A stretch of 64,000 nt of DNA from contig OZ316896.1 of NCBI GenBank assembly GCA_973895155.1, positions 7,325,278-7,389,277 on the forward strand, in the 5' to 3' direction. The translations under genes were made by a program, and so were the position numbers. Under the pieces are notes generated by a model, which saw only the letters and a program-made list of their open reading frames with translations, had not been told where the DNA came from and searched no databases. Numbering within the stretch: the first letter of the stretch is position 1; every line of letters starts with the position of its first letter. Shown piece after piece: positions 12,239 through 48,347 of the stretch. This DNA comes from Marsupella aquatica. Taxonomy: Eukaryota > Plantae > Marchantiophyta.

Positions 12239-12524
12239 CTCGGGGGGTTGACTATCAAAAATCTTAGGAACCACGTGCGATCCAAAATAGGTATTTTTGG
12301 TAGAAATTAAATAAAATTTTAAAAAGCGTAGGAGGCAAAAGAAGGTATTATAAACTCATGTTTATAGAATATTCTTTAATATCTACCTTTTGTAAATAAA
12401 ATAGACTATTAATATTGAAAATAGAGAATATTCTTGGAATAATTTCTTTCTAAAATAGGTTTATATATATTAGGCTAGGATTGCACGTGGTACTCCAAAA
12501 TATACACTTAGTTAACCCCCTGAG
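12239..12524. mobile_element. 286-bp MITE with 8-bp TSD, copy 1
   Basis: TIRs CTCGGGGGGTTGACT / AGTTAACCCCCTGAG; perfect TSD GGATCATC. Confidence 0.92.
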
Positions 12525-24219: not shown

Positions 24220-27200
24220 GTGGAACCAGATACCGACAATCAACTCAAGAAGGGTATGAGCAACGTCAATCAAGCTGCTCATTTTTGGGGATGCCTGTTA
24301 AAACAGGCAACTGAGTACATTGGGACCTACGAGGACGAAGAATCGGAGAGAGCCGCTCAAGAATGGCAGGAGCTTGCTCGACTGTGGGAGCTGCAGAAGT
24401 TTACCTTCTTAGGAGGAGAACTCATCATGGCTGAATTCCTATGGACGCCTACTACCAACGAACTCGACGATCTTTTGTTTTGTGAGAACAGAATAGTCGG
24501 CATCTGGGAAGCCATCAACCGCTGCAATGACATACATTGGGAGTTGAAGGGTAGCACGGAGGGGTGGACGAAGGCAACCGTGCTAGGAGAAACATCCACG
24601 GCAGCCGCTATGAAGAGGAAAGGGAACATCAATGAAGAGACCACCCCTGCAAAGAGAACAAGGTCGGCGGCACCAAGGAAGCCAGCCAAGCAAGGGAGCA
24701 GGAGGTAGGAAGAAGCCAAAGAAGAGGAGGTTGACCCCATCAATGTCGTTCCGACAAGAGAGGACACCTGGAAAGGCTGGGCGGCGACCCTCCCCGAGGA
24801 AGTGCAATTACACTTTGCACGTGAAGAGGATGCATGCTTTATGGCTATGTAGACTCAAAAGTACCAAGGCTTCATGGCCGGATCCAGCTTGGAAGCCTTT
24901 GTGAAGTTACCATGGCTGAAGCCGGAGGTGCCGGATTCAGACTTATTAGAATTTTTGGGATCCTGGGAGCCCGAGTCCAATTCCACAAGGGTGTATGGGA
25001 AGGATTTCTATCTCACTCCCCGAGTGATTGCCGAAGCATTTGGCTTGCCGATGGGCAATAAGACCAAAGTTGATACCAAGAACACCTTGCCCGACAAGGA
25101 GTTTCGGTCGTTCCTAGGGCCATCAATGAAGAATGGCTTCTTCCGGAACACCTGCACCAACCCGCACATTGGGGAGATGATCAATTTCTTGCAGGTAACC
25201 ATGCATTGCAACTTGCCAAGGCCAGAGATCGGCAAGGCACAGGTTTACCTGGGGAAGAGGCCAGACCCCAGTCGGGACTACAACGGATACCTCCTCACCC
25301 AATTGAAGAAAATCTTGAAGGAGGAATAGCAGGTGATCGGCAAGGGAAGCGTGACCCGACTTGGCTATCATATGCCGCTGTTGTGCCGGTATGCCCGAAG
25401 TCAGATATTTGCCCCGGTACTTCCCCTACAGGCAAGAGCACCAGAGGAGGTTCCAGAACAGAGGCCGGCAACAGAGAAACCAACCCAGCTCGACAGTCCT
25501 ACAATCGAGCAGGTGTTTAGGCCGAGGAAGGAAGACTTGCTGATGCAGCAACCAGGCATGCAGAATTTGCTGAAATTGCTGGAGAAGGAAAGGAGAACGG
25601 CAATGGCAACGGCAACAGGACCGGTACAGAATACTGCTCTTGAAGTTGGCCTAAGTTCACTAGGGAAAACCCCTTTACCGGGGCCAAGGAGAGAAGGAGG
25701 CCGGAACACGAGCCGGGAGTCCGAATGTATGTAGGAGCCTCAAGTCCCGAAGCCGAGGAAAAGTAGCCTGAAGCTCCTGGTCGCAACAGGGAGAAGAAGA
25801 GATCAACCTGGAAGCCGGAGGAGGAACCAGGACCCGTGATCTGTGAGGCCGTGTTCACGGCAAAACCAGGAGAGCAGCGGGGGGAGCCGGTAGTCCAAGC
25901 CGTGGAGGAGGCGGTAGAAGGCTACGACAATGATGACTCTGGCTACGGGTCGGACCATCATGTTCCAAGAGTAAGGACCTGTGGCAAGTTCATCCCCACT
26001 CTTCCAAGAGTAGTTTGAGGGGACCCCACCCAACATAGCAGCCCCAAGTCTCCCCCACCAGATGTCGCTCCCCCGAGCTTTGACGACATAAAATAGACGG
26101 CACAAGAGTTTCAAGAGCGACTCAGGGAGGAAGAGAAGGCAGCCTTGGCTAGGGAGAAAGATTTGCTAGGGGGAGAATGGCCAGAGCACATCAAGCGGCT
26201 TGCAAAAAAACAAAGCAGCCCTCCAGCCACGATAGAAGAAATCCGCAAGGCGGCTTGGGAACAAAGGCCGCGATGGTTGATGCCGATGACTTCTACTCAC
26301 TCCGCCTATGCTAAAGAAAGAGCCATGGAGTACGGGGAGATGTGTGGAGAACTTGCGCTCAACATCTTTGGGGAGGGGTTGGAGCAGGGACCCTTTTTCC
26401 AGAGGGAGATGTTGGAGAAGCGCCGATTAGAAGAAGCGGTTGCTTTGGAGAGAAGCAAGAAGGACGAGGTCATCCGTCGGCTTAGGGCAAGGGAAGTTGA
26501 GGTAGAAGACCTTAAGGCCGCCAAGAAAGCCCAAGATGAGCTGCAGATTAAGTGGCATGAGCTAAACATCATGCAAGGGCAATTGGATACCGCGCAATCT
26601 GATAATCAGATTATCAAGGATAAACTAACTCGGACCCAAGGAGAGTTGGTCGATGCGATCAAGGAGAGGGATCCCTGACGGCCAGCTTCAAGGCCGACCT
26701 CCGTGAGAAAGACGACCAGCTCGACCAAACTTATGCCAAGATGAATAAAATGGAGTCTAAGGTCGTAACGGAGCTCGGCAAGGAGCTAAGAGCCACCCAG
26801 GAGGAGAAGGCTACCTTAAAAAAGGAGCTAGAGGAAGCCCAGAGAGAGTTGGAGGAAGCCCAGAAGGAGCTGGAGGAGGCATGCAAGGACCTGGACAAAT
26901 TGCAGGAGGAGTTGGAGGAAAGCACGCGGAAGATGGAGAACTTACAGCGGCGAGCCGACAACCAAACGGAGCAGCTGAAGAAACAGGCCGCAATATTTAA
27001 GTGCTTGGCTTCCTCAGGTCCAACTCCAATTGGGGCAACCAAGTTGCCAAGAGTAGTACTGGCCGAAGGACAAGCCAAGACACTCACACCGGTGCCGGAG
27101 GTAAGTGGCAAGGGGAAGGGACCAGCTGCCAAAACAGGGAAGAAGAAGAAGCGAAAACCTTGAGGGTCAAGGAGTAACATGGCTTCTCACGCCGTCGTGA

Positions 27201-27526
27201 CCAAGGAGGTAAACCCAACATCAACCTCAGGCAGGGTCACGGCAGAGGATCCACCTGTCCTACAAGGCGGGGATAGCAAGGGCAAAGTCGGAATGCTCAG
27301 TGATGAGGCCGGTGTACCGAATCCACCACTAGAGCACGTCGGGGAAGCCGTAGCCATATTGGAGGCCGTGGCCAATGCTAAGGCCAAAGCCAAGGGTGGA
27401 CCCAGTCAAGCCGATGGAGAGTTGACTCGGTCCGGAGCAGGTAATCTGTCAGAGGATGGACCTACGGTAGTGGCTACGGAGGAAGTGTTGGGGGCGTCCA
27501 TTGAGGATCAGCCACCACTACCATGA
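24220..27526 (+). pseudogene. Long accessory ORF inside solo LTR D (LPW...FGLP domain, low-complexity linker, coiled coil)
   Basis: ORF pieces starting at 24220, 24874 and 25333 share one frame separated by TAG stops; later pieces give an E/K-rich coiled coil; resembles the ORF in LTR E. Confidence 0.7.
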
Positions 27527-28990
27527 CGGTGGTGGAGGGCCACTCCTTTTAAGGAGGGCGGACGTGGAGGAAGGAGGCGTGAGTGGGAAAGGCGGGCTCA
27601 GATCTCCAAGTTTAGAATTAGGATCAGGAGGCGGCCCTGACACTTAGCTTAGTGGGATTGCGGATCCACTGGTAAGAGCAACACTTGTGCTCCTGCCTCA
27701 TTGTACATAGGTAGATTACGATCAGGTTAGATTAGGCTTACGCTGCAAGGAATTGGGCGGATCCATTGCCAGGATAAGTACTTGGGCAGCGGGGGGTTCA
27801 GCACCTTCTAGCTTCCTTAGCAAGTTTTTCGTGCACCAGCAGGGTTGGGATCAAGTAATTAAAGAAGCTCTCGGTTAGTTATGTTGTGACCCTTGTGTAT
27901 ATTCATGTTTCCTCAGGGTCATTGTAGCGTGCGAGGAAACAGTAAAAAAATCCTCGCACTGGATCATTTTCTCCTTGGAATACCCAAAATTTGGCACGAA
28001 AACAACCTCGCTAGCATAAAGTGACTCTCGCTAGCCTAAAAGGAACCTTCTATTCCACCTATTTATTTAACTCCCGTTGGGTTTAAAAAGACATCCCAAC
28101 GATGCATTGGTACATATTACGTATTCCCCAGACACAAACGATCGTCGACGGCACCATAATTCAATATATAATTCCAACGTACATCAGGCCAGCAAAGTCA
28201 CTAGCCATAACTCTGCCCATCATTCTCGCACAAAATACTCCATGCGGTCATGACCCACACGACAAGCACTCATTAGAAAGCACGGGTTTAAACGGTTGCA
28301 GCAACAGCACTACACCGGATCATATCACGATAGAATCCAACGTCCCCTTCCTCATGAGTGAAGCGTGAAACGCAAAACCGCCGTTGAGGATCTGAGGCTC
28401 CCAAAATGCACTATATGTCATTCGGACCTCTCGACTCATCTCCATTCCTAATAGTGTCCTCACTCTTTCGCGATCGTCTTCGCATCGCAGAGTAACTTCA
28501 ATCGAGCTTGTGTTGTCATATCCACGGGCGAGGAGGGGATCTGGTGTTCTCGGGTGTGCCTCATTCTCGCAAAGTTTTTGTCGCACAAGGAGATGTAAGT
28601 TCAATACCGGGAGACCTCTTCACATCAAGTAGCATTATTGTTAATGAGAAAGTCTGGTTTTCCCAGTTCTATTTTCCTTCTCGTAGTTTTGCGCGTTTTG
28701 ACTCGATGAGCTTGGATGTTTTGAAGGTGACTGTTTCTATTTGGTAAACACAAGTGAGAAAGTAATCTGATACACTGCAGCGTTTGATACAGACAGAAAT
28801 GGCAAAGAACGATGACTCTTCCGCTCCAAAACCCAAATGGGTTCTGGAGGTCCGCCGCTACAACGCCAAAACTGACGGCCTAGTGGACTCGCCACCAAGC
28901 TCTCCTCCGGCAAGGAAGAGTGTACCCCCTCCGCTCAAGACTGGATCATCATCCAGTCGGGTCCCGCCTGTTGTCTGTGCTTCAACTCAG

Positions 28991-31900
28991 TGTGACGCCG
29001 CCGGTACGGCGGTTAATGAGTGATTCAGTCTAACTGCGCTCGGCACGCGCGTTAGGTGGGTCTTAGGCCGCTATTATTAGCATAACGACAGTATTTAGGT
29101 AATCATTAGGGGTAGGACATCATTAGGCAATAAGGGGGACTTCAGGTTCGGGCTGGCGGCGGGTCGCTATTCGCACACCCGGGTTACGAGCGTGGAAGGG
29201 CCCCTCCCTTGGGTCCGTATAACGAACTTAAGGAAGCGGCCACTGACGCACGCTGACTCAGACCGGCGGAGTGGCCGGTACACCACAAGCATGAGCGGTT
29301 TAGCCTATGGGCGTCGAGGAGACGTCGGGGATCGACAAGCCCTCAAAGTATAAAAAGGGAGCCAACCCTTTGTAGTGCACCAGTCCATCAGTCCGCGCGC
29401 CAGCTTTGACCCCAGCTCTCTTGTTCTCTCTAGGTCGCCACTACTATCTCCTCTGAGTGTCGCACACGATCCTCTCCAGTTCGGCCATTCGATTCTGGAC
29501 GCAGTTCCTATCTACCGGAAGGCACTTGGCCGATTCATTGAAACACGCCAACCCGCGCCGATACGAAATCGAACGCGAATACGAGAGAGCCATCCGCCTA
29601 GCAGGATGACACCACTACGTCCTTAACTTTGACTACCCGTCTCAGAGCGAGCTTTACCGACCAGCAGAGGTATCTGGGTACTTCTTCAACGGAGACAAAT
29701 ATATCGGGTTCTGGGAAGCATTGCTTCGGCTTCCGGACGAGGTCTTCAATATCCCGGGTACAATCGACCTGCAGCGACATCACTTCGACCACATCCCTGC
29801 CCGGGTTCGGCTGTCATTAACGGCGAGTCCAGTACCAACCGTTCGAGGGCGTCTACACTCGCTTCGGAGAACTTCTACCAGCACCTGCAGAGCTTCATGG
29901 GAACTCGGCCATCAACCAACATGACCAACTCAGCCGGGCCCGTACCCGTACCCTTGCCCATGCAGCCCCAGCCTCAACCTCAGGCTCAGCTTCAGCTTCA
30001 GCCTCAGCTGCAGCCTAGCCAAACCCCACCACCTATCACCCAGCCAGCACAGGTACGCTCCGTCATCAACACTGTGGATCTTAGCAATGACGACGAGGCT
30101 ACCCCACCCTTGACCAGGCGGCCCAGAGGAACAGGCGCTCGGGGGGCCGACACTATATCATCCCCACCCCCTACTCTGACCCCAGGAGCGGCCCCAACAG
30201 ACAACATGGTGATCGTGGCCGCCCCGGGCCCGTTACCAACCGCAGTGGCACTCCCCAGGCCCGATCGGGAGGATGGGGAAGTATCACCTTCCCCGAGTCA
30301 GTCACGGGGAAAGAAGAGGAAGGAATCCGCCACTGCATCCGGGTTACCGTTGGCCACGGTAGCCGTAGCCAAGGTGACGATGCACCGCATGGGGGAAAAC
30401 GTTCACAGCAACATCCTCCATCCCAAGCATGCAGTGTACCTGAAGACTCAGGGATTTGAGCACCTTACCTCCCTCCCCTGGAACACTTGCAGGTACTACG
30501 GGGAGGACATGACAGAATTCGTCAAGAATTATGATGACGTACGTCAACAGACTCGGCTGCGGGGAAGGAATATGTCCCTCACAGAAGAACGGCTCAAGAT
30601 GATCTTCGGGTTACCCGAAGGTGACCATCGAGTCGAATCACGGGCTCCCGGGGGCAAGGGGGCCAAGTACCAATCTTCAAATTTTCCCTCAGAGGGAGCA
30701 GTAGACAACGGGTTCGTGATGAGGACCTGTCTCATGCCCGAGATAGCGGAGCGGCTGGAGTTCCAAAGGTACGCTCTCCACATGATGGAACCCCGGGGGG
30801 AGATCTCCGCCGCCCAGGTTATCCAGGTCGAGAACTATCGACCTAGGAAATGGGCGTCGTACTTCGCTAAGAAATTCCATGAAAAGATGGAGAGGTGAAG
30901 GAAGACGCTGTACATTGGCGGGAAGGCGTATTTCACTAGCCACATCGAAATCATTCTGGAGTGGTACGCCCGGTTTGATCGACGAACCCTTCCCCGCATC
31001 AACGTTACAAAGCTGGTCCCAGCTAGGTGGGTTTTTCCGGCATTGGAGAGACGGCCCCAACCCGAGGCCCGAAGTCCAGTGGACACGCCAGCTTCACCCA
31101 CCCCACCTCCACAAATAGCTGTAATCGTAACCGAGGAGGCGCCGGAGGGGTTGGTCGTCGCAACCGATGCGACCCAACTAGCCGGGCTAAGTACAGAAGT
31201 TGGTACGGCAGAGGTCTTACCCGAACCCGGGTCTCCCAAGGACCCACCGGTGGCAATTTCGGAGAACCGGACATCGCTACAGGAGGACACTCCAGCCCCT
31301 TCCAACGTTATGTCCCCAGGGCTGGACGTCACTGCCCCGGCCCCTGCGCGTGTTGACGTCTGCCCGTGCCCAAATCCGGACAGGCACAACTTGGACCACC
31401 CGGAACTCTTCGTACAGGGTACGTTTCTGAACGGGCTTCTGGGAGATTTCTCTCATCAAATTGCCCGGGATACCGGGGAGTTCATGGCCCGGAAGGTAGC
31501 CTGTTTCTTCAATCAGGAGTTGGTTGCCACCGTAAAGGCAGGTCGGGCCCAGTCAGAGGCCCTTCAGAGGATAGAGCGGTACCGGGTGGAGTCCGTGTAC
31601 CTAAAGAATGAAGTGGCGGCTCAAGAGGCTGAGCTTCTGCAACTACGACCCAAGGTTGCAGCCGCCGATGAGTTGTTAGCAAAGGCGTACGCTCTTACCG
31701 CCCTAGCCGAGAAGCAGGACCAGCTGGCGGCTAAACTGACGAGCGACGCCCAGCAGCTGGAGGAGGCATGTCAGGAGGCAGCAGAGGAGACGGACGCGGC
31801 GAGGCGAGAGAACGAATCTCTGCTGGACCAGGTCCAGCTCCTCAAAGCGGACAATGACAGGCTTCGAAGGCAGCGGGATGGCCGTTCCCATTCGGGCGGC

Positions 31901-32820
31901 TCTGGCAAGCGTGCCAGGCATTAGCGGCGGAGTAGGAATAGATTAGGATTATGATTGGCTTAGTCAGGCTCTTGGGACAGGCACCTGCCTTAGGTACAGC
32001 AGCGCTGCCCTGCTGTCCAGCCTGCGTAGATTAGGATCTTCTAATAAGACACAGCCGTTTTCCGGCCTGACTGTCAGCTTAGTTAGGACCTTAGTCAGCG
32101 AATCTTCAGTGAGAGGACACCCCGTCCCTCGGCTCTTAGTATTTAGTGCACCCCTCGGTAGAGGCAGGGGGGTTTTTAGTTTCAGAGTCGGACATCCGCG
32201 GGATATGCGGGGAGTCCCGACCTCTGGGAATGACAGAGTACCAAGGGGAGGGGGTAGGACTAAGCTCGTCGGGCGAGTGCGGAGCCGGGCTCCGTTGTAG
32301 TGTGCACCCTCGGCCTTGAACCTGTTCATTCCAGGGCTGTCGGGTCAACTAAGTGTACGCATATGTTCCCTTTGTAGTAAAATCCTTTCCCATCATTTTC
32401 TTTCGTGTAGATCGAGATTGTATGCATGTGTGCGCATATGTGTGTGGGTTTCTCGTATATGGGTGGCAGCGCCAGGCCGAACGCACTACCCGAGACGTGC
32501 ATAGGGTGCAGCCTACGGGTAAGTGGTTGCGAGCACGGGTTGAGGACCTATATCATCGAATCCGGATCGAAGGCGGACAGCATGAAGGCTTAGAAGCCCT
32601 TAAGCCGGGGTCGATCCTGCTATCAACTAAGGTACGTTCCGGCGGCGGAACACAAACCATACCTAGGAGGTGTCCGTATTTAGCAGTATGCACACTTAGC
32701 GCTAGTTTACGAGAATAAGGTGCATTACGTGCTTCCCTTCCTGCCCGAACCCTCAGATTTACGAGGGATGTGCCCATCTAAGCTGAAGTCTGAGTTAAGG
32801 CCGAAGCCTACGACGTGACA
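28991..32820 (+). mobile_element. Solo LTR E (3830 bp) carrying a long ORF
   Basis: TGTGACG...CGTGACA termini; perfect TSD CTCAG; TATA-like TATAAAAAGG near 29349; no terminal direct repeats, PBS or pol. Confidence 0.88.
29897..31924 (+). pseudogene. Accessory ORF of LTR E, 676 codons with one internal stop
   Basis: 29897-30898 and 31043-31924 share a frame and 30899-31042 is open; P/Q-rich N-terminus, LPW...EFVKNYD...IFGLPEG domain, C-terminal coiled coil. Confidence 0.75.
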
Positions 32821-33567
32821 CTCAGCGACCTGCACCGCCAAAGGAAACAACTTCAAGCATTGTTTCCAGAGCACCAATGTCTTCTCGCACAAACCGGAAG
32901 AGAGAGGAAGAGGAGGAGGAGGAGGAGGAGGAGTCTTACTGGAGGGACATCAACATACACAACTACTGGACATCCGATATCCTAGCTTCCTCCGATTATG
33001 ATACGGATTCGGACACAGATTCAGACGCCTACAAGGCAGCATCTCCATGAATAGTACCCTAGACGACAATCACTCTACGTTGTGAACCCCTGTAGTTTTA
33101 CAGTTAATCTCTGACAAGTCCGTGACCTTACAATGAAATGATCGGTAGGACACAAACATTTTGTCAGTTACAGATGTTTTGATAAAGATTGGACACATAT
33201 CTGAATAAAGCTTCAAAAGTTTTTCCAATTTCATGAGTGCATACCTTGCTAGCAAGATCGCTAGTAAATATTGCCTACCGGTACTTGAGTGATTTCCGTT
33301 GTGGATGGCATGAAATCACTCCGTGTATGTTAAACTTTCACAAAAGTTTGGTCGAATTAAATCTTTATGTGTTGTTAATTGTTAGCGACATCACTAGTTA
33401 AAATAGGCAACATTTAGGACCCACACTTATTATACAGAAGATCCTCACTAACATACCATCAACATTCTTATTACTCGGAAAGTGTCCATTGTTCAGGTTT
33501 TGAAACCTGGAATGCGACAAAAACAGGTACTCTTAAACGTCCACCTTAACGGATAAAAGAGATGGAC

Positions 33568-36500
33568 TCAACTATTGTGTAATGGAATCAAACTCCTTAG
33601 TTCACCAATAGTCAGAATTGGCTGTTTCACAAGATTGTCTCTCTCTAGATTAAGCGAAAACTTATTTAAGTACACCCAGAGGAGATGTTTACAAGACATG
33701 TAGGGTCTTCCTCGCGTGTGCCTCTTGTAGAAGTCATCACAAGAGCAACAAGGGAAGCAACACACTTGAACCCAATAGTTGTGTGCAATTCTAGAGTCAC
33801 TCTCGTGAGTAGCGATGAAATATTGCCATCCCCATCCGTTTCCTATGCAAATCTTGTCACTTCCAATGACTCTCATTTGTTCGACAGTTGCAGATCAAAT
33901 GCGTTTAAGAAGCTTCGGGGTGTTCTGGAAACGTTGCCGAATGCCTTTCCCATTCCGAGTCTTCAATCGACGATTTGGATAAGCAATGTCAACCCTTTTG
34001 GGGAAGGCGTTCACATCAATTTAGAGGTCAAGACGACTTGCAGGAGAGAATGACCTGATTGGTGTCGCATCAGAGTATGATAACCCTATGATTTGAAAGC
34101 CATTTCGAAGGAAAAAATCAATCTCTTCAGGGGTCAGACTAGTTCCTCGTTGGACTTGCAGTGCCTCAGGTGGTTGCGGGAGCTGGGCAAGAGTCCTTCT
34201 TCCACCTGTTTTATGGCACTTATTATTTGGACAAAAGTACAGAAGCTGACGATGTGGGGAGGACAACCTCAATCCATGAATGGCCACACCAACAACTCCA
34301 GTCCGGAATGCCTTATATCCAGTTTCCTTGATCAGATTATGGCATTCTTCTCTACCAAAGACACTCCGATCCACTAGTCCGTTGCACACAGGTCCACTCC
34401 CTTTCCCACTTTGTCTCAAATGCCAGGTCCCATACGAAACATCAACCTCTTCAATAAAAGGGATCCTTCGGGGGGCATCCCGAATCTGATCCTGACTATT
34501 TTGAGGAGATGGTATTTCTCCAACATCATTTGTAATCGGTGTTCCTTCTACATCTATTCCAAGGCTTCGTTCTTCACCATCATCTGAGATATTGATAACT
34601 TCACGAGGGAGAGCATCTGTCTGGTGGGTGGGACAGTTTTCATTATCAAGAATACACGACGGTCCCCCAAGGTCAGAACCACTTCTGAAACTACTTAATT
34701 CAGTGTACAGATTCCTTCTTTTCAAGCTTGACGGAGATGTTATTGTACGCAATATTTTATCATGTCGATGAGAATCATTCTCATGAATAGACGCGGAAGC
34801 ATTACCCTTACATTGTCCGAATATCCCCATGTAAAGGCTCTGTTCTATAGAACTCATACTTTCCAGAGGATTCAAATAGTAGATTGGATTCCTTCTCGTA
34901 GGCATCCAACGATCCCATAGTATTTTTATTGCGATAGGCCAGCTCAAATATTGTAGGACCATTACCACGATGACATCCTTCCATATATGCGGTGAACGCA
35001 ACAATCTGTCCAACTGCTCAATTCTGATAAACTTCACATGCTTCCATCAAACCAATTCTCTTCTTCGGTTGGCACAATCGCATGGAAGCATGAGAAGATT
35101 CAGATCCTGCGCAGTTTGGCATCAAGGCAAACTCTTTTGCAGTTTGTATCTGCCACAGAATCAATGTTAGTCAATGTATTCAGGCTAGCGACCTCGCTAG
35201 TAGAAAGCACACTAGTTACAGACTAGCTAGGGTTAAAACAACGATATTTAGGCTAGCAATCTCGCTGGCTTAAATTTATCATAAATGATGGATAAAACTT
35301 ACCACTCGAATAAAATTGCCCCATTGTCTCCATCGCACAACCCACCATGAAATCCAACCTTGAAGGGATTTGAGCTTTGAAGGATGACAATTCCCTTCTT
35401 TCCACCATTTTTGAATGTTGTCTGCAATTCTATACGCTTCGACGTAAGTTGGGGCAATCCTTAACTTCTCCCACATCTTATAATGCTCTGCATGACACCC
35501 CTCCTTGATGCCATCCAATGTGTGTCTCCTCAGGGACTGAGAAAAATGGAAAGCATCGCTGTGCTCTTTCATAGGATTTCGAACACCACCAAAAAAAACT
35601 CGTCGTACAGCAATCCAACCCGCCTCTGCATTGTCAGCTATGAATCCTCCAATAACAGGATTATGCACTCCATTCTCCGATGCCACATCTACCATCAATC
35701 GCCATGCAGTTTCAAGGGACTCGGTGTCTTCGGCTCTCAACTCACAAGTAAAAATTGTACATAGAGCCTGGTAATTGTGGTTATAAACATGTGCACTGAA
35801 TGTCAACCATCCAGTAGTGATGCGATGCATCACGTCAAAACTGACCCAAGCACCTTCCAAAACTCTTCCAGACTCCATGCTCCTCAAAATGTCCACACCA
35901 GATCCAGGTCCGTTTGTACTCATTTTGAATACATGCGCTCGATCATTCTTATTCCCTTGACTAGGAAAAAGGTACCTTTGCACAAAAGGGAAATTATTCC
36001 TTGACTGCATTTCACGAAGGGCATCAAGTTCTCCTTTTTTGGGATTATCCATCTTGATACTCCGGAGTATAGCTTGGAACTTGGGAGTAGTGGAAACCAC
36101 ACCTATGGAACTCCAGATTTCCATCTATTCTTCTCTCGACAACTGAGATGATGATTCCGGATGCAAAAGTGAGACAAGGCTGCCAATGGACTGGTTCCTC
36201 ACAAGTGCTGGAGTTGATACTGGATTCAATCTATGGACCCCTAAAATGACATCTTACGCAGTCTTTCTTGCTGAACGAGATTTCCCTTTCCAAACTGGAT
36301 GGTCATGGAATCCCATATGCACAACCAACCTGGACATATGCATTGAAATGTGACTCTACAAACCTGGCTTAGGGTACACGTACAACAGTTTTGCCGGGAA
36401 ATTTCAAATACAAAGCGGCCGCTCTTCACAAAATCCACAGACAATGTCACCCTCACTCACGTGCTCCTCTCGGGGGGTTAACTAAGTGTATATTTTGGGG

Positions 36501-37768
36501 TACCACATGCGATCCTAGCCTAATATAAATAGACCTATTTTATAAAGAAAATATTCCAAGAATATTCTCTATTTTCAATATGAATAGCCTATTTTATTTT
36601 ACAAAAGGTATATATTAAAGAATATTCTATAAACATGAGTTTATAATACATTCTTTTGCCTCCTACGCTTTTTAATTTTTTTTTAATTTCTACCAAAAAT
36701 ACCTGTTTTAGATCGCACGTGGTTCCTAAGATTTTTTATAGTCAACCCCCCAAGGTGCTCCCCAAGACGAAAGATGTCAGTCAGTAACCCTTTCCCTCTA
36801 AACGAGCAAGCATTTTTCTCATTCGTATGCTTGAACTTCCGACATCCCAAATTTTGGCATTCAAGTATTCCAACACATCGGACTTTTGAGGCAGACCAAT
36901 GGAACCTTGGCTTCAGGTTTGCAGACATAGTGACAAGTCGAGTCCACGGATAGCCGTCGTTCTCTCGATCCATATCTTGAAGACCTCCTCCGCGTCCGGA
37001 CCCTTCGATGGGAGGAAGTTCAAAAACAACGTTACTATTGTATGTCGATAGCAGACTAGGAACCTGGCATTCCTTCCACTAATTCCCTCTTCAAAATTGT
37101 GCAAGTTCACTCACGCCACTTATATTGAGAAAAGCGTCATAAGCACTCATCCGATACACTATTGGCATGGTAAGCACATCCATTTTCTTGACCAATCCTC
37201 CGGGTTCCGAACCACCTCCTGACTTGGCTGACCCACAAGATGTGTCCTGCCTTAGACTATCAAGAGATATTTCAATGATATCCGGGGCCATTTCTTTTGT
37301 AGGCATTTCCAGATCAATCATACGAGTAGTTTTTTCTTCAGGAGGAGAATCCACATGGTCCAGAATGATATTAGGAATGCCATCTTTACTTGACACAACC
37401 TCTACATGAGATCCAACCTTCAATGTCCAAACCCTATTGGAAGTACTACTTTTTTCTCTCAACTCGTGACTACGTGTTCTATTTTGACAATACAACTCAA
37501 ACAACTTGTAGATGATATCACCATCTAGAAGTCCAAACCGAGTTGTAAGGAATGACTCTGTCACTGTCACCTCCGATGAACCTGGTGTGCTAGGAAGCAC
37601 AACTACATCTCCCATCATTCTACGCTCCAAAATGACTTTGCAAGCCATCTCAATCGTCCTAGACAAAATTTTAGATGACAACAAAAGAAGATGACTATGC
37701 TTAGGATCGTCTACATGACCCTTATGATGAAGCTTTAATCTCATTTCATCCCAACGGAAACAACCCAT
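33568..37768 (-). pseudogene. Mutator-like transposase: GCM-like zinc domain, DDE core, C-terminal SWIM finger
   Basis: DGYPW...CVGILECQNLGC...CGFC...HMGFHDHP; WVSFDVM, FIADNAEAGWIAVRRVF...AFHFSQ and, after an intron (~35150-35302), GSESSH; CSCDDF...CKHLLWV. Several stops and a MITE. Confidence 0.82.
36469..36754. mobile_element. 286-bp MITE with 8-bp TSD, copy 2 (inverted relative to copy 1)
   Basis: Near reverse complement of 12239-12524; TSD GTGCTCCT/GTGCTCCC. Confidence 0.92.
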
Positions 37769-38332
37769 TGACCAAATTGTCAGAGAGTTTCCGTTGATGT
37801 GACCGTTGTTTTGTTTTTTACTACTTGTATCGTCGGAGTCCTCATGCTAGTGAGATCTAGCATATAATGACACGCTTTATGGATATATTTATAAAGATTT
37901 TCCTAGATTTTATGTATATATAGACTGCAGATTTCAGGCCAGCGATCTCGCTAGCCAAAAAGTAATTTCAATGGTCTTTAATTTTACCATTGGGATTCCA
38001 TTCATAATAGTCAACGGGTACCAACTACGACCAACACCTATCCTGTTTTGTATGGATTACATACTCCCGGTCGTGAGAGTTGTTCTTCGCATTTTCCCAA
38101 AAGTACAACTAGTGATCTATGCCAGGAGATTTCTGTTATTCCTTCCTCGGATTCGACATCGTCTTCTGTATTCATGACTGTACCTCTTTAGGACTTCATC
38201 TGGTCTTTGTAACAGTCTGTACGGCTGTCCGGTACTGATTGTTGTTGATGTTTGTCACTCGTGCTGGGATTGCATCCTCTGGACAGGAACACTCTTCAGC
38301 AAAGTACACTCTTTGGCGAAGGGTTTTATTTC

Positions 38333-41300
38333 ATGGAGTCGTCGTTGTCTCTAGAGAATATTTCTTTCAGAGGATTGTTCCAGTCCAGGGAGTCGACTAG
38401 AAGAGAAACAAGGTCTATAGCGAACAAGAAGGTGCTAGCATCGGGATTGAAGACTCCAAGACGACCCAAGATGGTGATAGCAGTAGATGTTGTGGCACCG
38501 GTGTTTGATCCGAGCGCTTCGGAACCTTATACTGTTGTCATAAACCATCATCTTTACTCTTTCGGAGTGAATGAGTTTGGTTTTTATCTGGCTCCCCCTT
38601 GAATTCCTCTCTGCAGGATGAGGAACATGCAAATTGTTCGATCTCTGTAGAAGGATTCAACTACGATAGACACACTGAAGTCCGAGTTCAGGACCCAGGG
38701 TTACATTGAAGATGCGCCTCGGTTTTATGTACAGATGACCAACGAGGATGGAGAGCTCCAATTGTGTATTGATGCGATCTGTGAAACTTTGGATGACATT
38801 TGGGTGCTTCAGAAAGAGGAGTTCGAACGCGAATGTGATTCCCATGTATCTTTACACGTCCTCAAAGACAAGATGTTCTTTGTTTTTGATGGAAACCATC
38901 GACTGTATTCTTGGACTCAACTTGTGGAAGAGCATCCGGAAGATATTAAGTACCATCTACGAGTTGTTTGCAAGATTTTTAAGGGTGATAAAAACTCATT
39001 TGTTCAGATCGAGTCGGCAATGCACGCATTGAACAGGTGCAATTTCTAAGTATAACATTTTCTTGAAATTTGTGTTTTAGTTAATCACTTTCTGCTAGCA
39101 ATCTCGCTAACATGAAAATTCTCTGGCAAGTTGACACAATGTCACGTTGAAAACTCCTGGGTTTTGGAGGCCGAACGGGTCCAAAAGATTCTGAACAACG
39201 ACTTGTCAGTTTACAAGGATATCATCGATGCTGAGAATTACAAACTTTTCCAGCAAAAGATGGCAAACATGCGGAAGGCAGCTTGGTATTCCAAGAACAT
39301 GACGCTGGATGCTTGCACTTATATTCTATCCGCTGCTAACATTGCATCTTAGACGGAAGACCTCAAGAAAAAGTTTGCTTTGAAGGAAGCTCAAGGGGAG
39401 CCCCTGTCGAAGGCCTCACAGGAGTTAGCAATGCAGGAGATGATGAAGGAGCAATTGGCTGATTGGAATGTGAAAGTTCCTAAGATCGGTCCATTACTGA
39501 ATCCAAAATTTGGTGACTTTTTCAAGAAATGTGTAGAAATGCATAACTACTGCAAGAATGAGAGAAAGGAGGCCCACAGAACTGATGACAAAGGACGAGG
39601 AAATGTTTCTTGTGGTCTTGATTGAGCTCGGTTGTTCACAGGGGTGACGTCCTTATCCCCAGAACTCCGATGTACACTCCTGGAAGCGTAGTGTTGTCCA
39701 AAGCTTTGAAATAAGTTCTTTCATCCTAGTCAATTTTCAGATAGTGAAACGAAGCTTTGGCTTCACCGCTGGGCAATGTGGGAGCAAGTCGAGTCAATTG
39801 CGTCTTCCCTCATGTCTAAAATTGTGTTTGAGGTTATGCCTACTGTCCCAAAGTCCCGGATCCTTAGTTCTTCAAAAAAGACCAAAGCTTCGCTCATCCT
39901 TGACATTGAGGAGGATTTTGAGGATTTCCAGACTCGTGTTAAGACTCATTTCTTCCTTCAAGCAGATTTGGCCTCCCAAGACAGGAGAGAAGATCGAGAT
40001 TGCATTGTTCCGAAGGAGAGCAAAGAGATACACGTATCAATTTTTTGTAGACAAAGAAGTAGCAGACAAATTCTACTGGTGGTCCTACCCAGCTTGCTTC
40101 TCCCCATGGATTGCAGGAGTTAAAGAGGATCCTATAGGTGACAAATTTGGGGATTATTCTATGTTTCCTTGCGAGGGATGTGAGGCTCCAAGGAGAATGA
40201 GCGAGTGGGAGATTCTTCACTGTCCATGGTATTTGGACTCGGACAAGTGGTCTGTCACCTTCAACACTGCAGAGAAAGCCGCTCTTCATATGATCAATCA
40301 TGGATTCCTTCCGGAGTCTTACATCTCGGAGTCCAAATTGGCACCCACTGACGCTGAAGTTGGTGGTTGCGAGGCTATGGAAAAAGGCTTGTCTTGGTGT
40401 AGCTGCAATAGTGGATAGGAGTCGGTCTCGAAAGCCAAGGAAAGGTGCAGTGAAAGACACATCCAAAGATGGGTCCCAAATATCGGGAAAGCCAAGTAAG
40501 TGTGTCAATGTTTCGCTTCATTTTCTTTTCACGATCTTATGTGTTTCTAAAGAGACAGATTCTAATAGCTATTTTTTGACAAAGAGGAGGAAGGGTACTG
40601 CTTCTGAGAGTTTGAAGAGCGGGGCAGATGATGGAGTGGAACCTCAGTCCCCAGATGTCGAAGTAACAACAAAGAGCACAGTGGATTTGGGAAGTATAAA
40701 GCGTCTGAAATGAAAGAGGAATGTCCAGATTCTGTCGGATTCGGATGATGATGAAGTTTCAGTTGCTCAAGGCGTCGCTCGGATGTGTGGGTTGAAGATG
40801 GATGGCTAGAGACATTTCCTTGCTCGCAGTAATTTGATCGACACTGCGAATTCTATCAGCGTAAAGAAAGTAAGGCCATCTTGGATGGGAGATGGAGACG
40901 ATGGATTTCTGGGATGTCCAACAGTGTCGAATGCCCAAACCCTATCATCATTAATGGCAAGCCATGTATGATGGGATTGGAGCACATTTGGGATTCATTT
41001 CTCTTCCAACAGGGCATAGAACACGCGTTATAGACAAAGAGGTCCTGCCCTGGAATGTGTGGAGCGAGAAGCTGCCTTCTTACTTTTTTGGAGTCACGAG
41101 ACCCATGCTTTCGGACGAAGGATATGTGGCTGTGCTTCATAGCTTGGATTTCAATCACATGCGACAAATATTTATTGCGGTTGAGCAAAAAAACAAATTC
41201 AAACACGTACAACAATATACAGTTTTATTATCCACTCCTTTATGGAGAGCCGATATGGATATTGAGGTACATATTACTGAGATATTTTGATGCGGTTTTA

Positions 41301-41941
41301 TGCTAGCAATGTCACTAACAAACATCTTATCATTTTCAACTTGAAAAAGGTTCATTTCCATCTTTGAATTAATGCTAGCGATCTTGCTAACAAAGTTTCC
41401 AGGCTTTTCTAATAGAATATCATTCTTCCTTCAGGTGTGCACTCTCATTCTGGACGTCTTCTGTCGAGTGGAATTTAATGCAAAAATTCCCAAAGACCCT
41501 GCCTATGTTCCTTTGACGTCTTCGGAAGATGCCAGGCATAAATCAATGCTGAGCGTCTGTTACCCAAAGATTGACCCCTATCCAACAGCGACCGTTGCTG
41601 GATCAAAAAGGCTATCAATTGGCTTCATGCAAGCCGTGATGGAGTTCCTCACAAAGCCGAGAGATATCGTCCTTGACTGGACTATGTGCGATGGAAGCTC
41701 ATTTTCCGTAGGGGAATACTCTGGTCGGTTCGTTGTTGGTGTTGAGGACAGGGACATTCTCCATTCGTGTGCTCAGAAAGGTTTAACAAGCGTTCTGGAG
41801 AGGCACTCTAGCAAGTCCAAGATGATTAAAGATCAGGAAAAGAAGGGTAATCAGGATGCTGGGTCTGATGATGAGTTCACGATACCAGGAGATGAACAGG
41901 CTCGACCTTCAAGCGAGAAAGACAAATTTGACCTAGAGTAA
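38333..41941 (+). pseudogene. ParB/Srx-like domain fused to an N6A/N4C DNA methyltransferase-like domain; intron-containing
   Basis: IPLCRM...LKSEFRTQGY...FFVFDGNHRLYSW (DGNHR at 38888-38902); AHLGFISLPTG...MLSDEGYVAVLH; FMQAVMEFLTKPRDIVLDWTMCDGSS...GRFVVGVED. Introns ~39037-39129, ~40496-40583 and 41267-41434; may extend to ~42380. Confidence 0.72.
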
Positions 41942-44079
41942 AGTACTTGGCCTCTTCTGATGTCGGACTCCCAATTTGGTTTCTTTTGTTTTATTCATTT
42001 TGTTGCTCTTCCTCAACTGATGCCAGTGGTTGCTTCAATGATAGGAGGGTGGATTGGTTTTTTGAGGAGAGATTTTGTCTTCGAAAGGAAGTGGAGGAAT
42101 CCATCCTGGTTACTCCAGAGAAGCCTTTCACTCTTCCGTGCTATGCTGAGAAGTCGGCGAAGGAGGTTGATGACGCTCCTGTGGTCTTGACCTAGGAGGC
42201 GAAAGGGCTTCGCTCAATTAGAGGAGCTCGTAGATATCTGGATTGTTCAAGGGTTATTGACAATGAAGCAGGGACAGTTAGCCAGTATTTAGATGAGTCT
42301 GCCGAGTCAACTGAGAGAAGACCAGTAGCGATCCTAGTAGAAGTTCAATATCTGATGATTCAGTAGATGAGGTTTATGACTAATGCAATAGCTTCAGTGT
42401 TAAACTGGCTATACTGCTTACCATCGACTCTTATAGTTTTTTTCTGTGTGCCGGTTTTTGGATGTCCATACTTTTAATGTATAATGAATGACCATGTTCT
42501 CATGAAAGTGCCTGCTATTCGGTTATTGTTTTCCAATATCGTTGTGCGCAGAGTCAAGTATGGAATGCATATGACAATCATGCATGAATTTCCGTAGTTA
42601 TAACACTTTCATTACTTTGAGAGAGGGAAAATAGTGAAATTTGGTTGTTTTTTCCATTAATGTGGTCGTGAGTTCGATCATAAAATGTGCCTCGCTAACA
42701 ATGCTACCTCGCTAGCAAAAATTCCTGTTTGCTTGCACCGTAAAATTCCTCGTTCCCTCATACCTAAGAGATGAATAGAGTTGGCCTCACGGCTTAGTTC
42801 GCAGATCTTGTGTATGAGAAATACTGTTTGTATGGCAAGTGCATGGTATAACTCAATCAAAAGGAGTCATTTTGCTATTTGTGTGTCGCATTAACTTGTT
42901 TGAAGATTGCCCACATCAACCAAGAAGGGAGTAAGCAAGGTAGTAAGAATTGGATGTGTCGAGCTGAGAGAGGTCTTAGCGGCTTACCCAAGCCAGTTGG
43001 GGATCATTCCGGTGGCGGAATCCAAACATACCTAAAGGAAGACCAGGAGAGGAGGACAAGGGAAGGCATAGAAGAGGCCGGCTACGTATCTCATGACCCG
43101 ATGAAGGATCTGTCTAGTATATGTGTGTAAAATGTTAGTAGAAGGAAGTTAGCAGCGTCCCATGCCGCTAAGCCGCGAAACTGGCCTCGCCAAGAGCAAA
43201 ACCTACGGGAATTGGCTTGTGCACGGGGTTTTTTGGGTTCAGGGAGTCATGGGATGCACCACAGAGGATATCGTGCCAAAAGATTTCGGCTTAGGAATGG
43301 CTTTTATAGGGGATGATGGGCGAGGCCTCCCGGTTGGATTGCGTGCATGCTGACTCGGAGGGGCTGCTTGGTTGGATGGATTGAGGTTTGGTGATTGGGT
43401 GACTCATCGTCACCAGGTTTGGTGTTTGGGTGAGTCACCAGGCTTGGAGTTTGGATAAGCCTCGCTGATGGCAGCTAGCTCAGGCTGGATGGTTGGGTTT
43501 CCAATGCTACTTAAGACTTGAGCCTCGGCTCATTGAGGTTGGCGGTTGTCTATTGAGATCTATTGAGTTTTGTTTTGTGAGTTTCGCTCTGTTCTGCGGA
43601 ACTTGACTATTGTGCGGCGGGTTTGGAGTTCTGTGCGAGTGTTGGATCCAGGTGTGGAGTTTTGGATCCAGGCAGGGATTTCTCAAGTTTGGAGCCTTGT
43701 CGATCCAGACGGGGATTTCTTGAGTTTGAAGCCTCGTTGGTCCAGGCCCAAGTTTTGTGTGAGCTATTTTAGACTAGTGGAGTAGCTAGTCAAGTTTTGG
43801 TTTTGTGAGCTAAGGAGGAGAGTTTTTCCGTCAGATTTTGAGTAGATAGTCACTCGAGGAGTTTGGCTTGACAAGTTAGAGGTAGCGGCCCGCCGTAGGG
43901 CCAGCTACCAGACTCTTGTGGGCAAGCTTACTCGAGGGCACCCATTGTAACCTTTGTGAGAAAAGTAAAAAAAATAAAGGAGTGAGAGTTCGCTCCAAAA
44001 AGTGCTTGTCGCCTGTCCCAATCGCAGCCAGAAATGCGGAGTTTGCCCGAGGAGCCCCTAACTTTAAGTCCTCGCGACA

Positions 44080-47062: not shown

Positions 47063-48347
47063 ATGTCTGCATTTAAGGCATTTGCATCCATTGTTCCAGT
47101 CCGTTCCTGTCTGCGTCTGGTCGTCCCAGTCCGCACGCCATTGTTCATGGGAGAATGGTGGGCTGCAATAGGGCTAGTGATTTTGCTGGCCTCATGTATG
47201 TATTCCTTTCAACTTTTTCCTGATTGTTCCTTGGATTCGGATGTTGAAAAGAGGGTACAGATTTTGAATTATTCCTATCCTCGGTTCATGTATGATGCTC
47301 ACTTGTGGCCTAGCCTTCTAGTGAATCCAATACCTCATATCCACAAAGCTTCTGTTCAGTTTAGTTTTTTTGAATAAATTGAACACTGATACTTATGTTT
47401 TACAAACACTTGTTGTAGCCTGGCAAGGGTCATTTCATGCTAGCGAGGCACTAATCATGAGATATTTTGGGTTATGCAAGAAGAAAATGTGCCCGTGAGA
47501 ATAATGTTTTTGATGTTGCTATATGGTGAATGCAACTTTCAGTATTTTGTCTTATTCAAACTTCTTTTGTTATGCATTTTTATTTGAATGTGTCTTACCA
47601 AGGTGCATCCCTTGTATAGTTTAGATTTCAAATTTATTCTGGCACCCCTCTAATTTAAAAAAAATCTTTGCTATATTTAAGATCATCCACCCTTTAACAA
47701 AGCTCGTGTGATTTCTAGCCCTTATTCTCATGAGTGCAGAAAAAATGATCTAAATAAAGTGCACACCTTGTGTCTTTAAGTACTACTCATGGTTTTGTGT
47801 CCTAAATTTATGGTTTTAATTATTTGGAGTGTCATTAGCTAAAGTAAGCACATAAGTATCTCTACTCTTGTACATTATGTGCACATCCCAATATCATAAA
47901 CTTAAACTTTCACTTTCCTATTCATTATTATTTTTCTTTACATGTGTAATTTTACTCTTGTACCTTATGTGCAAAAGTTCAAATATCATAGACTATATGT
48001 CTTCCTAGTTAATGTACTGTTTATATTTTAATTAGCACACTTTAATTAGAACACTTGCATATCGCTACAAAACAAAAATAAAATGAACATGCCATATCTC
48101 GCACGCTACAATGACCCTTACATAGCTTTGTGAACTTGCCTAGTTTAAAAGAGATCACGTCCCGGTATGGCGCTTTTTATATCATAGCTTTGGAAACTTG
48201 CCTAGCTTGAAACAGTGCTGCAACATTAGAACGAGCTCCCGCCATTTCCTGGATTTCCCGATGCCCAACCTACTCTTGTGGAGCTTTCAAACTCTGCAAA
48301 GCCATAGCGTCTCGGTAGCGAATGCCGGAAGAAGAAATCAATCGGCT

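Follow-up and report, generated by a model that had tools for sequence, protein, structure and literature searches.

A decayed Mutator-like element of the liverwort Marsupella aquatica combines a methyltransferase-like, putatively ParB-like cargo gene with a conserved non-coding palindrome

Accessory genes that bring together ParB-like and DNA methyltransferase domains have been described on large DNA transposons of algae. The giant transposon Sola1-1_Ec32 of Ectocarpus carries, opposite its transposase, a gene for a 1,104-aa protein with ParB-like and N4C/N6A methyltransferase domains (PMC12477816), and red-algal Plavaka elements carry the accessory genes PAG2 and PAG3, homologs of which sit on Chondrus Mutator elements (bioRxiv 2025.02.11.637652). 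The latter paper describes such cargo as moving between transposon superfamilies, draws an explicit comparison with the VANDAL elements, and presents VANC as the sole transposon protein for which binding to, and modification of, its own element have been demonstrated. For algal transposons, published work has already proposed that ParB cargo binds its own element or counters silencing (PMC12477816; bioRxiv 2025.02.11.637652). In VANDAL21, the motifs bound by VANC21 lie in introns, intergenic DNA and terminal regions (PMC5735166), and bacterial ParB proteins read palindromes, the ParB-parS system forming a CTP clamp (PMC8367383). Here we analyse a Mutator-like element (MULE) in a 64,000-nt stretch of the M. 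aquatica genome (contig OZ316896.1, positions 7,325,278 to 7,389,277; 'the window'). The element occupies window positions 27916-42751 (14,836 bp) and, once nested insertions are discounted, has a core of ~10.7 kb with three genes: a transposase gene, a cargo gene and a small open reading frame (ORF). An original prediction made from the letters alone had proposed that it reaches an end similar to that of VANDAL with prokaryote-type parts; a VANC-like arrangement of motifs and an amino-methyltransferase fold are upheld below, self-marking is weakened, and the ParB component is moderately supported. The likely novelty is the land-plant MULE version, with an enzyme that is probably inactive and a well-defined, conserved candidate target word; no land-plant Mutator with such cargo was found in the literature searched, a body that largely excludes subscription papers and preprint supplements.

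The interior of the element is marked by an 18-bp palindromic word, GCTAGCG-N4-CGCTAGC. With up to 3 mismatches allowed, the window contains 12 matches to it where 0.93 would be expected, and 0/100 shuffles reached 12. Nine of the 12 fall inside the element core and all nine are non-coding, non-coding DNA being 27% of the core (P ~7e-6 with the present gene model). There are none in the 7.8 kb of coding DNA, none in the 4.1 kb of nested DNA and three in the 49 kb outside, one of these in the end of a sister family, so that the density is 3.1 per kb in the non-coding core versus 0.06 per kb outside the element. The palindromes flank all three genes, including the promoter region common to transposase and cargo, and one inferred cargo intron (~40498-40583) has no palindrome. 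The repeated non-coding palindrome of the original prediction is thereby substantiated as a word specific to this element.

The word is conserved in a divergent relative. This locus, L001, is the sole relative represented by DNA (a metagenome scan in which 1 locus was confirmed among 112 pattern matches); it is 70% identical in the exon encoding the DDE core of the transposase. In the same transposase intron it has three palindromes where 0.03 would be expected; their arms are those of the element and their spacers are CCGG or CTGG. In other copies, variant introns stop or resume their alignment at palindrome edges (joints 35200-35295 in at least one sequencing run and 41269-41369 in at least two). 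Of the departures from the word in the present copy, 16/19 are C>T or G>A and 9/19 fall at its two CpGs, a pattern consistent with host 5-methylcytosine (5mC) on the palindromes of this dead copy. Beyond such elements, a 20-bp form of the palindrome was found in ~120 prokaryotic stretches versus ~139 expected by chance and in 7 viral ones, with 0/127 loci encoding a relative. Separate viral scans for relatives confirmed 0/25, 0/52 and 0/70 candidates.

As in VANDAL, a long Mutator-like element with extra genes has family-specific short motifs in its intronic, intergenic and terminal non-coding DNA. VANC, however, is a DUF1985/DUF287 protein that reads non-palindromic 9-mers arrayed in tandem in one orientation, and its hypomethylating effect has been demonstrated (PMC5735166), whereas here the protein is unrelated, the word is an 18-bp palindrome and the role is a candidate read from sequence alone. 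No Pfam match to DUF1985 or DUF287 was obtained for any ORF of the element, and the cargo has another fold.

The element is bounded by 9-bp target-site duplications, GTTTCCTCA and GTTCCCTCA, which match at 8/9 positions and have a length within the 9-11 bp typical of MULEs. Its terminal inverted repeats (TIRs) of ~30 bp are short and degenerate, 21/30 identical as an inverted pair, and also of MULE type, the TIRs of MULEs being either long or, in non-TIR types, short and degenerate. When every position of the window was scanned, 42751 was the sole one that combined a TIR score of 21 with a target-site match of at least 8. Joints from flank to flank skip 14,845 bp in contigs of three of the four sequencing runs (X1, X4, X5), a length that equals the element plus one 9-bp duplication and so fits these ends. 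Because the flanks belong to a very high-copy long terminal repeat (LTR)-like repeat into which the element inserted, the joints probably represent other copies of the host repeat that lack the insertion, rather than proven orthologous empty loci. The TIR-bounded unit first proposed at 27927..42739 is therefore real as a unit, with true ends ~11 bp farther out on each side. An alternative right end at 48117, suggested by a 20-bp match to the left terminus, was rejected: it has no target duplication and the empty-site joints fit 42751.

Assignment to Mutator is secure, because the DDE exon lies next to MULE clusters, the expected motifs are present and the duplication is 9 bp long. For this exon the top named ESM Atlas clusters are MULE PF10551 (0.94), with 10/10 of the best named matches in one family or clan, and the D, D, H and E motifs could be placed, with acidic DDE-type motifs at 35842, 35638 and 35107. 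Cysteine/histidine patterns occur as CxC..CxH at 33759-33679 and as a C..C..HDHP region at 36877-36296; these we take to be SWIM-type and GCM-type regions on the strength of their motifs, no profile having matched them. Of the GCM-DDE-SWIM transposase originally called on the minus strand, the MULE-type DDE core is thus confirmed, and the GCM and SWIM parts are motif-based. Pfam gave no significant family for any ORF of the element or for 13 relatives, and the transposase and ParB profiles had no significant sequence match in the PDB. Fifteen transposase relatives at 46-69% identity were recovered among 297 candidates, three of them named Calypogeia fissa.

The cargo gene stands head-to-head with the transposase, ~490 bp away, and reads from an exon with the motif DGNHRL (at 38888) into a methyltransferase-like region, with a degenerate motif IV, ISLPTG, at 40997 and motif I, DWTMCDG, at 41675. 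The divergent spliced gene of the original prediction is recognizable in this arrangement. From its splice sites and from the deletion ORF P0044, which joins the N-terminal and methylase parts in one frame and so supports a single gene, we infer that its exons form one protein of ~1,050 aa. On that one-gene model, ParB-like and amino-methyltransferase domains would share a gene opposite the transposase, which is the layout of the algal cargo. In this respect the element resembles Ectocarpus Sola1-1_Ec32, a giant DNA transposon whose opposite-strand accessory gene is proposed to bind and modify its own element. The two differ in that one is a MULE in a land plant and the other a Sola-1 element in a brown alga, the proteins being compared here by description; moreover, the available text of the Ectocarpus paper gives no target word ('palindrom' has 0 occurrences) and treats the enzyme as active, whereas motif IV is lost here. 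The Plavaka genes likewise place a ParB-like domain and a PF01555 methylase on a transposon, with inverted repeats proposed as ParB sites. There, however, two distinct genes encode a fusion of ParB with a 2-oxoglutarate (2OG) oxygenase and a fusion of the methylase with SET, and the repeats form tandem arrays next to PAG3. In M. aquatica, a single gene appears to hold both the ParB-like and the methylase part, and the palindromes are scattered over introns and intergenic DNA.

The present copy is decayed, as had been recognized: stops interrupt both cargo and transposase, a frameshift is present, and two nested insertions split the element. The cargo has six in-frame stops in 38333-39955, of which at least three (38600, 38648, 39350) are sense codons in most of the read depth of all four runs, so the cargo frame of the family was open at these positions. 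Its last exon gave 44 matches among 1.84 billion representatives, and relatives span 30-60% identity. Two of the matches, the long proteins P0032 and P0039, were repeat-driven chance matches and were dropped from all alignments. Organism names were present on 4/19 of the cargo matches looked up, all of them liverworts (Calypogeia fissa three times, Riccia sorocarpa once), and no alga was named among the 19 methyltransferase-search matches looked up. Read depth over cargo and transposase is similar in all four runs, with median cargo-to-transposase ratios of 1.3, 1.5, 1.5 and 0.7; these are ratios of depth and not of copy number, and they bear only indirectly on whether the cargo is missing from other copies, the refuting condition named in the original prediction. 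In C. fissa, the methyltransferase-like protein CAM6096687.1 (P0036) and the transposase CAM6096701.1 (P0052) are 14 accession numbers apart, on contigs that are both 18,966,709 long; this, in one of three such pairs, is no more than a hint of linkage. As separate observations, P0044, P0072 and P0073 are short ORFs from public assemblies that join the cargo N-terminal part directly to the side of the methyltransferase that binds S-adenosylmethionine (SAM), as internally deleted relatives, and 42028-42370 may be an additional acidic exon of the cargo, interrupted by one stop.

The C-terminal domain of the cargo has a beta-class amino-methyltransferase fold, as judged from a close relative. Pfam N6_N4_Mtase matched 17/22 relatives scanned at E<=0.1 (one above the curated cut-off), and the cargo family profile matched DpnA (E 4e-7) and CcrM (E 6e-5). 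A structural model of the relative P0003 (mean pLDDT 63.9) matched CcrM with a Foldseek E of 2e-7 and a VIA Z of 13.0 (root-mean-square deviation 3.8, 201 aligned). Cargo relatives show the permuted order, in which the catalytic strand is N-terminal to the SAM-binding motif, and the prokaryote-type, amino-methyltransferase-like nature of the cargo proposed at the outset is supported. The same permuted fold occurs in the rotifer enzyme N4CMT (PMC8885841; VIA Z 11.5) and in DN4MT1 of Marchantia, itself a liverwort (bioRxiv 2021.02.12.428880). These two, however, are host genes with an intact SPPY and demonstrated activity, whereas the domain here is transposon cargo without SPPY. At the position of motif IV the window copy reads ISLPT and five relatives read FLPN, FLPN, ALPT, CLPN and DPPT; the consensus (D/N/S)PP(Y/F/W) is kept in 0/6 of the sequences that cover the position, the closest being the DPPT of the most distant protein, from Riccia. 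The SAM-binding motif I, DxFxGxG-like in this class, is kept in most cargo relatives as D-W-x-x-G-x-G. In rotifer N4CMT, a change of SPPY to APPA abolishes activity (PMC8885841), and DIRS1 retrotransposons are known to contain inactive methyltransferase domains (PMC4738411). Because motif IV is lost throughout this alignment, the domain is likely a pseudo-enzyme or an enzyme of altered chemistry. The proposal that the element marks itself by methylation is weakened by the same observation, and 4mC/6mA (N4-methylcytosine/N6-methyladenine) marking becomes the less likely branch. A tblastn search of P0043 against phages returned four weak methyltransferase matches (E 2e-3 to 7e-3), too weak to name a donor.

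The N-terminal part of the cargo is likely ParB-like, with moderate support from its sequence. DGNHRL is invariant in 5/5 aligned sequences and conforms to G-x-x-R, which we take to be the nucleotide-binding motif of ParB. Residues 110-281 of the relative P0001, 56% identical to the window exon, lie close to ESM Atlas DUF3723 clusters (0.96). The earlier ParB-like call thus retains DGNHRL and the DUF3723 and ParB_N clusters in its favour, and has no Pfam match; a model of the ParB exon (pLDDT 48.5, best structural match Z 3.6) is too poor to speak on the fold. The nearest ESM Atlas clusters of the 38651-39046 exon, reached through P0001, are DUF3723 proteins. DUF3723 is described as conserved cargo of fungal Starship elements in a paper whose available text does not use 'ParB' (bioRxiv 2021.12.13.472469), and it may be a ParB-type domain common to unrelated giant eukaryotic elements.

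We tentatively favour, at somewhat short of an even chance, a model in which the cargo protein binds the nine palindromes and keeps its family transcribable against host 5mC by occupancy or recruitment and not by writing methyl groups. A word whose arms are conserved around a free spacer, which has two-fold symmetry and which keeps strictly out of coding DNA, points to a dimeric binder encoded by the element. The cargo is the best candidate for that binder, since the sites occur throughout the interior and near every promoter, like the VANC21 motifs, and since ParB proteins read palindromes. The protein would consist of a ParB-type domain fused to a methyltransferase fold without its usual catalytic motif; its N-terminal part, if dimeric, would suit a site of two-fold symmetry whose 4-bp spacer is free, and by binding the nine non-coding palindromes the protein would recognise its own family. 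Since motif IV is gone, bound protein would more probably shield the DNA or recruit other factors than write 4mC or 6mA. The outcome would be a VANC-like release from silencing, and a dead copy such as this one could act only as a target for protein from an intact copy.

Several observations weigh against this model. The middle of the cargo has no Pfam or PHROG match, nor was a helix-turn-helix or any other domain that reads DNA recognized there. For the N-terminal part, the ParB_N cluster matched by P0001 (0.92) has that family on 11% of its members, and the match to a PHROG ParB-like family has an E of 0.016. Motif IV was placed by the Pfam match of P0043, which starts at profile position 2, and a MAFFT alignment, not by a residue-level structural alignment, and motif I of the window copy is itself altered (DWTMCDG). 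Cargo and transposase were not seen together on one long sequence of a second copy. L001 is only 2,078 bp long, so that the palindrome is tied there directly to the transposase alone, and CGCTAGC half-sites cluster within 120 bp of both ends, as expected of transposase sites.

The last two points lead to the strongest rival, in which the palindromes are sites for the GCM-type zinc domain of the transposase, used to recognise the ends, to bring about synapsis of a long element whose TIRs are poor, or for autoregulation, while the cargo acts elsewhere. We regard this as unlikely on balance but a serious possibility. In its favour, the TIRs are short and degenerate, the half-sites near the ends are in tandem, the conserved sites of L001 lie inside the transposase gene, and the end of the sister family retains both a half-site and a full site. 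Against this, only one of the nine full sites lies within 1 kb of an end, three are inside the cargo gene, and the half-sites have the same orientation at both ends instead of pointing symmetrically inward. Were the site to belong to the transposase, it would add an unremarkable though useful detail to the biology of non-TIR Mutators.

A stronger version of binding by the cargo protein would be a eukaryotic ParB-parS-like system, in which a nucleotide-gated clamp loads at the palindromes and spreads over ~10 kb while the dead methylase shields or reads cytosines, thus blocking host 5mC. This we consider clearly unlikely. The palindromic site is of a length similar to parS, and a nucleotide-binding domain with what we take to be the G-x-x-R motif is predicted; unlike in ParB-parS, there is no ParA and no identified helix-turn-helix, and the nearest clusters are eukaryotic DUF3723-type proteins. 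If it were true, land plants would have a second, independently built sequence-specific anti-silencing machine, and a class of transposon proteins found in brown, red and green lineages, and perhaps including the DUF3723 proteins of fungal Starships, would have its first target word.

The cargo might instead be an active methyltransferase with a non-canonical active site that writes 4mC, 6mA or another mark at or near the palindromes, in line with the self-marking of the original prediction and with what the Ectocarpus paper proposes for its enzyme. Some 30 relatives retain both the complete beta-class fold and the SAM-side motif, the motif IV position has S in the window copy and DPP in the Riccia protein, and liverworts use a 4mC enzyme (bioRxiv 2021.02.12.428880). 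However, 0/6 sequences have the aromatic residue of (D/N/S)PP(Y/F/W), their first motif residue is variable (S, F, F, A, C, D), and catalytically dead methyltransferase domains are known from transposons (PMC4738411, for DIRS1). We judge active methylation improbable.

More improbable still is that the word is a host-facing or RNA-level signal, that is, a site for a host transcription factor or a hairpin or branch-point element that aids intron splicing. Five of the nine sites are intronic, and the three in cargo introns (39094, 41302, 41374) all carry G17>A, giving CTAAC at 20-110 nt before the acceptor, a word we take to be branch-point-like; these may double as a splice signal. The remaining 4/9 sites are not in introns, however, the word is ~50-fold rarer outside the element, and the L001 sites keep GCTAGC. 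Least probable, and largely refuted, is that the cargo travels as a passenger and that internal duplication left the palindromes as neutral relics: this copy is dead and internally deleted relatives such as P0044 exist, but in L001, 30% diverged in protein, the arms are conserved amid intron DNA that is not, the palindromes keep entirely out of coding DNA, and cargo relatives at 30-60% identity imply long retention.

For binding by the cargo protein, the practical gain is a defined site. The algal proposals, in the text available, name no target word for their ParB-methyltransferase proteins, whereas this element offers a defined and conserved 18-bp candidate. The site occurs in liverwort-type plants, among which Marchantia is a tractable host, so the question is open to a direct binding and methylome experiment, and the lost catalytic motif shifts the prediction from a protein that writes a foreign mark to one that binds or shields.

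The coordinates of the features are collected in Table 1. The nested foreign DNA, absent from the first account of the element, totals 4.1 kb of the span. Its larger part, the LTR-type insertion, has a depth 45-98x that of the element core in three runs and is nearly absent in the fourth, and a joint 28963-32820 was seen in another copy in contigs of the sequencing runs. It contains two long ORFs (29633-31924) with a coiled-coil end; these GC-rich ORFs were considered as cargo and rejected, since they lie inside the nested TG...CA insertion with its own duplication. The small acidic ORF of the original prediction is real and has 138 aa once this insertion is removed, its frame being continuous after the insertion and one 5-bp duplication are discounted. 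In the transposase, the main exon has acquired four stops and the last exon a frameshift, and a hAT-like miniature inverted-repeat transposable element (MITE) has inserted.

Table 1. Features of the Mutator-like element in window coordinates
Feature	Position	Strand	Remarks
Left 9-bp target-site duplication	27907..27915	+	GTTTCCTCA; joints skipping 14,845 bp
Left degenerate TIR	27916..27945	+	21/30 vs right end
Two subterminal half-sites CGCTAGC	28009, 28029 (28009..28035)	+	left end
Palindrome 1	28188..28205	.	upstream of small ORF; sister-family counterpart 47173
Small Ser/Pro-rich acidic ORF, 138 aa	28799-28990 + 32826-33050 (span 28799..33050)	+	split by nested insertion
Nested LTR-type insertion, 3,830 bp	28991..32820	.	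TG...CA ends, 5-bp duplication CTCAG; foreign to Mutator
Palindromes 2, 3	33248, 33381 (33248..33398)	.	between convergent ends of small ORF and transposase
Decayed MULE-type transposase gene	~37846-33568	-	GCM-type zinc region (putative), DDE core, SWIM-type end (putative); intron ~35295-35154
Palindromes 4, 5	35184, 35252 (35184..35269)	.	transposase intron
Nested MITE, 286 bp, hAT-like	36469..36754	.	8-bp duplication; interrupts GCM-type region
Palindrome 6	37938..37955	.	upstream region common to divergent transposase and cargo
Decayed spliced cargo gene	~38333-41941	+	putative ParB/DUF3723-like N-part, middle, beta-class amino-methyltransferase fold, acidic tail; exon model inferred
Palindrome 7	39094..39111	.	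cargo intron 1
Palindromes 8, 9	41302, 41374 (41302..41391)	.	cargo intron within methyltransferase domain
Two subterminal half-sites	42693, 42710 (42693..42716)	+	right end
Right degenerate TIR	42722..42751	-	21/30 vs left end
Right 9-bp target-site duplication	42752..42760	+	GTTCCCTCA

Further features were noted around the element. The sister-family sequence is a left end at 47148-48117 on the minus strand, whose terminal 20 bp (48098-48117) are identical to those of the element and which has patches of 73% and 81% identity. A half-site lies at 47439, and a complete palindrome at 47173 matches the relative position of its counterpart in the element; the sequence is cut off by LTR-type DNA, and its partner end was not found within the window. 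A second copy of the 286-bp MITE lies at 12239-12524, with 8-bp duplications at both copies, one of them perfect. The host repeat to the left of the element (24853-27526) has ORFs of a look similar to those of the nested insertion. From 48349 onward, on the plus strand, is the start of a spliced host gene; its first exon has no Pfam match, and the gene presumably resembles the GINS subunit SLD5.

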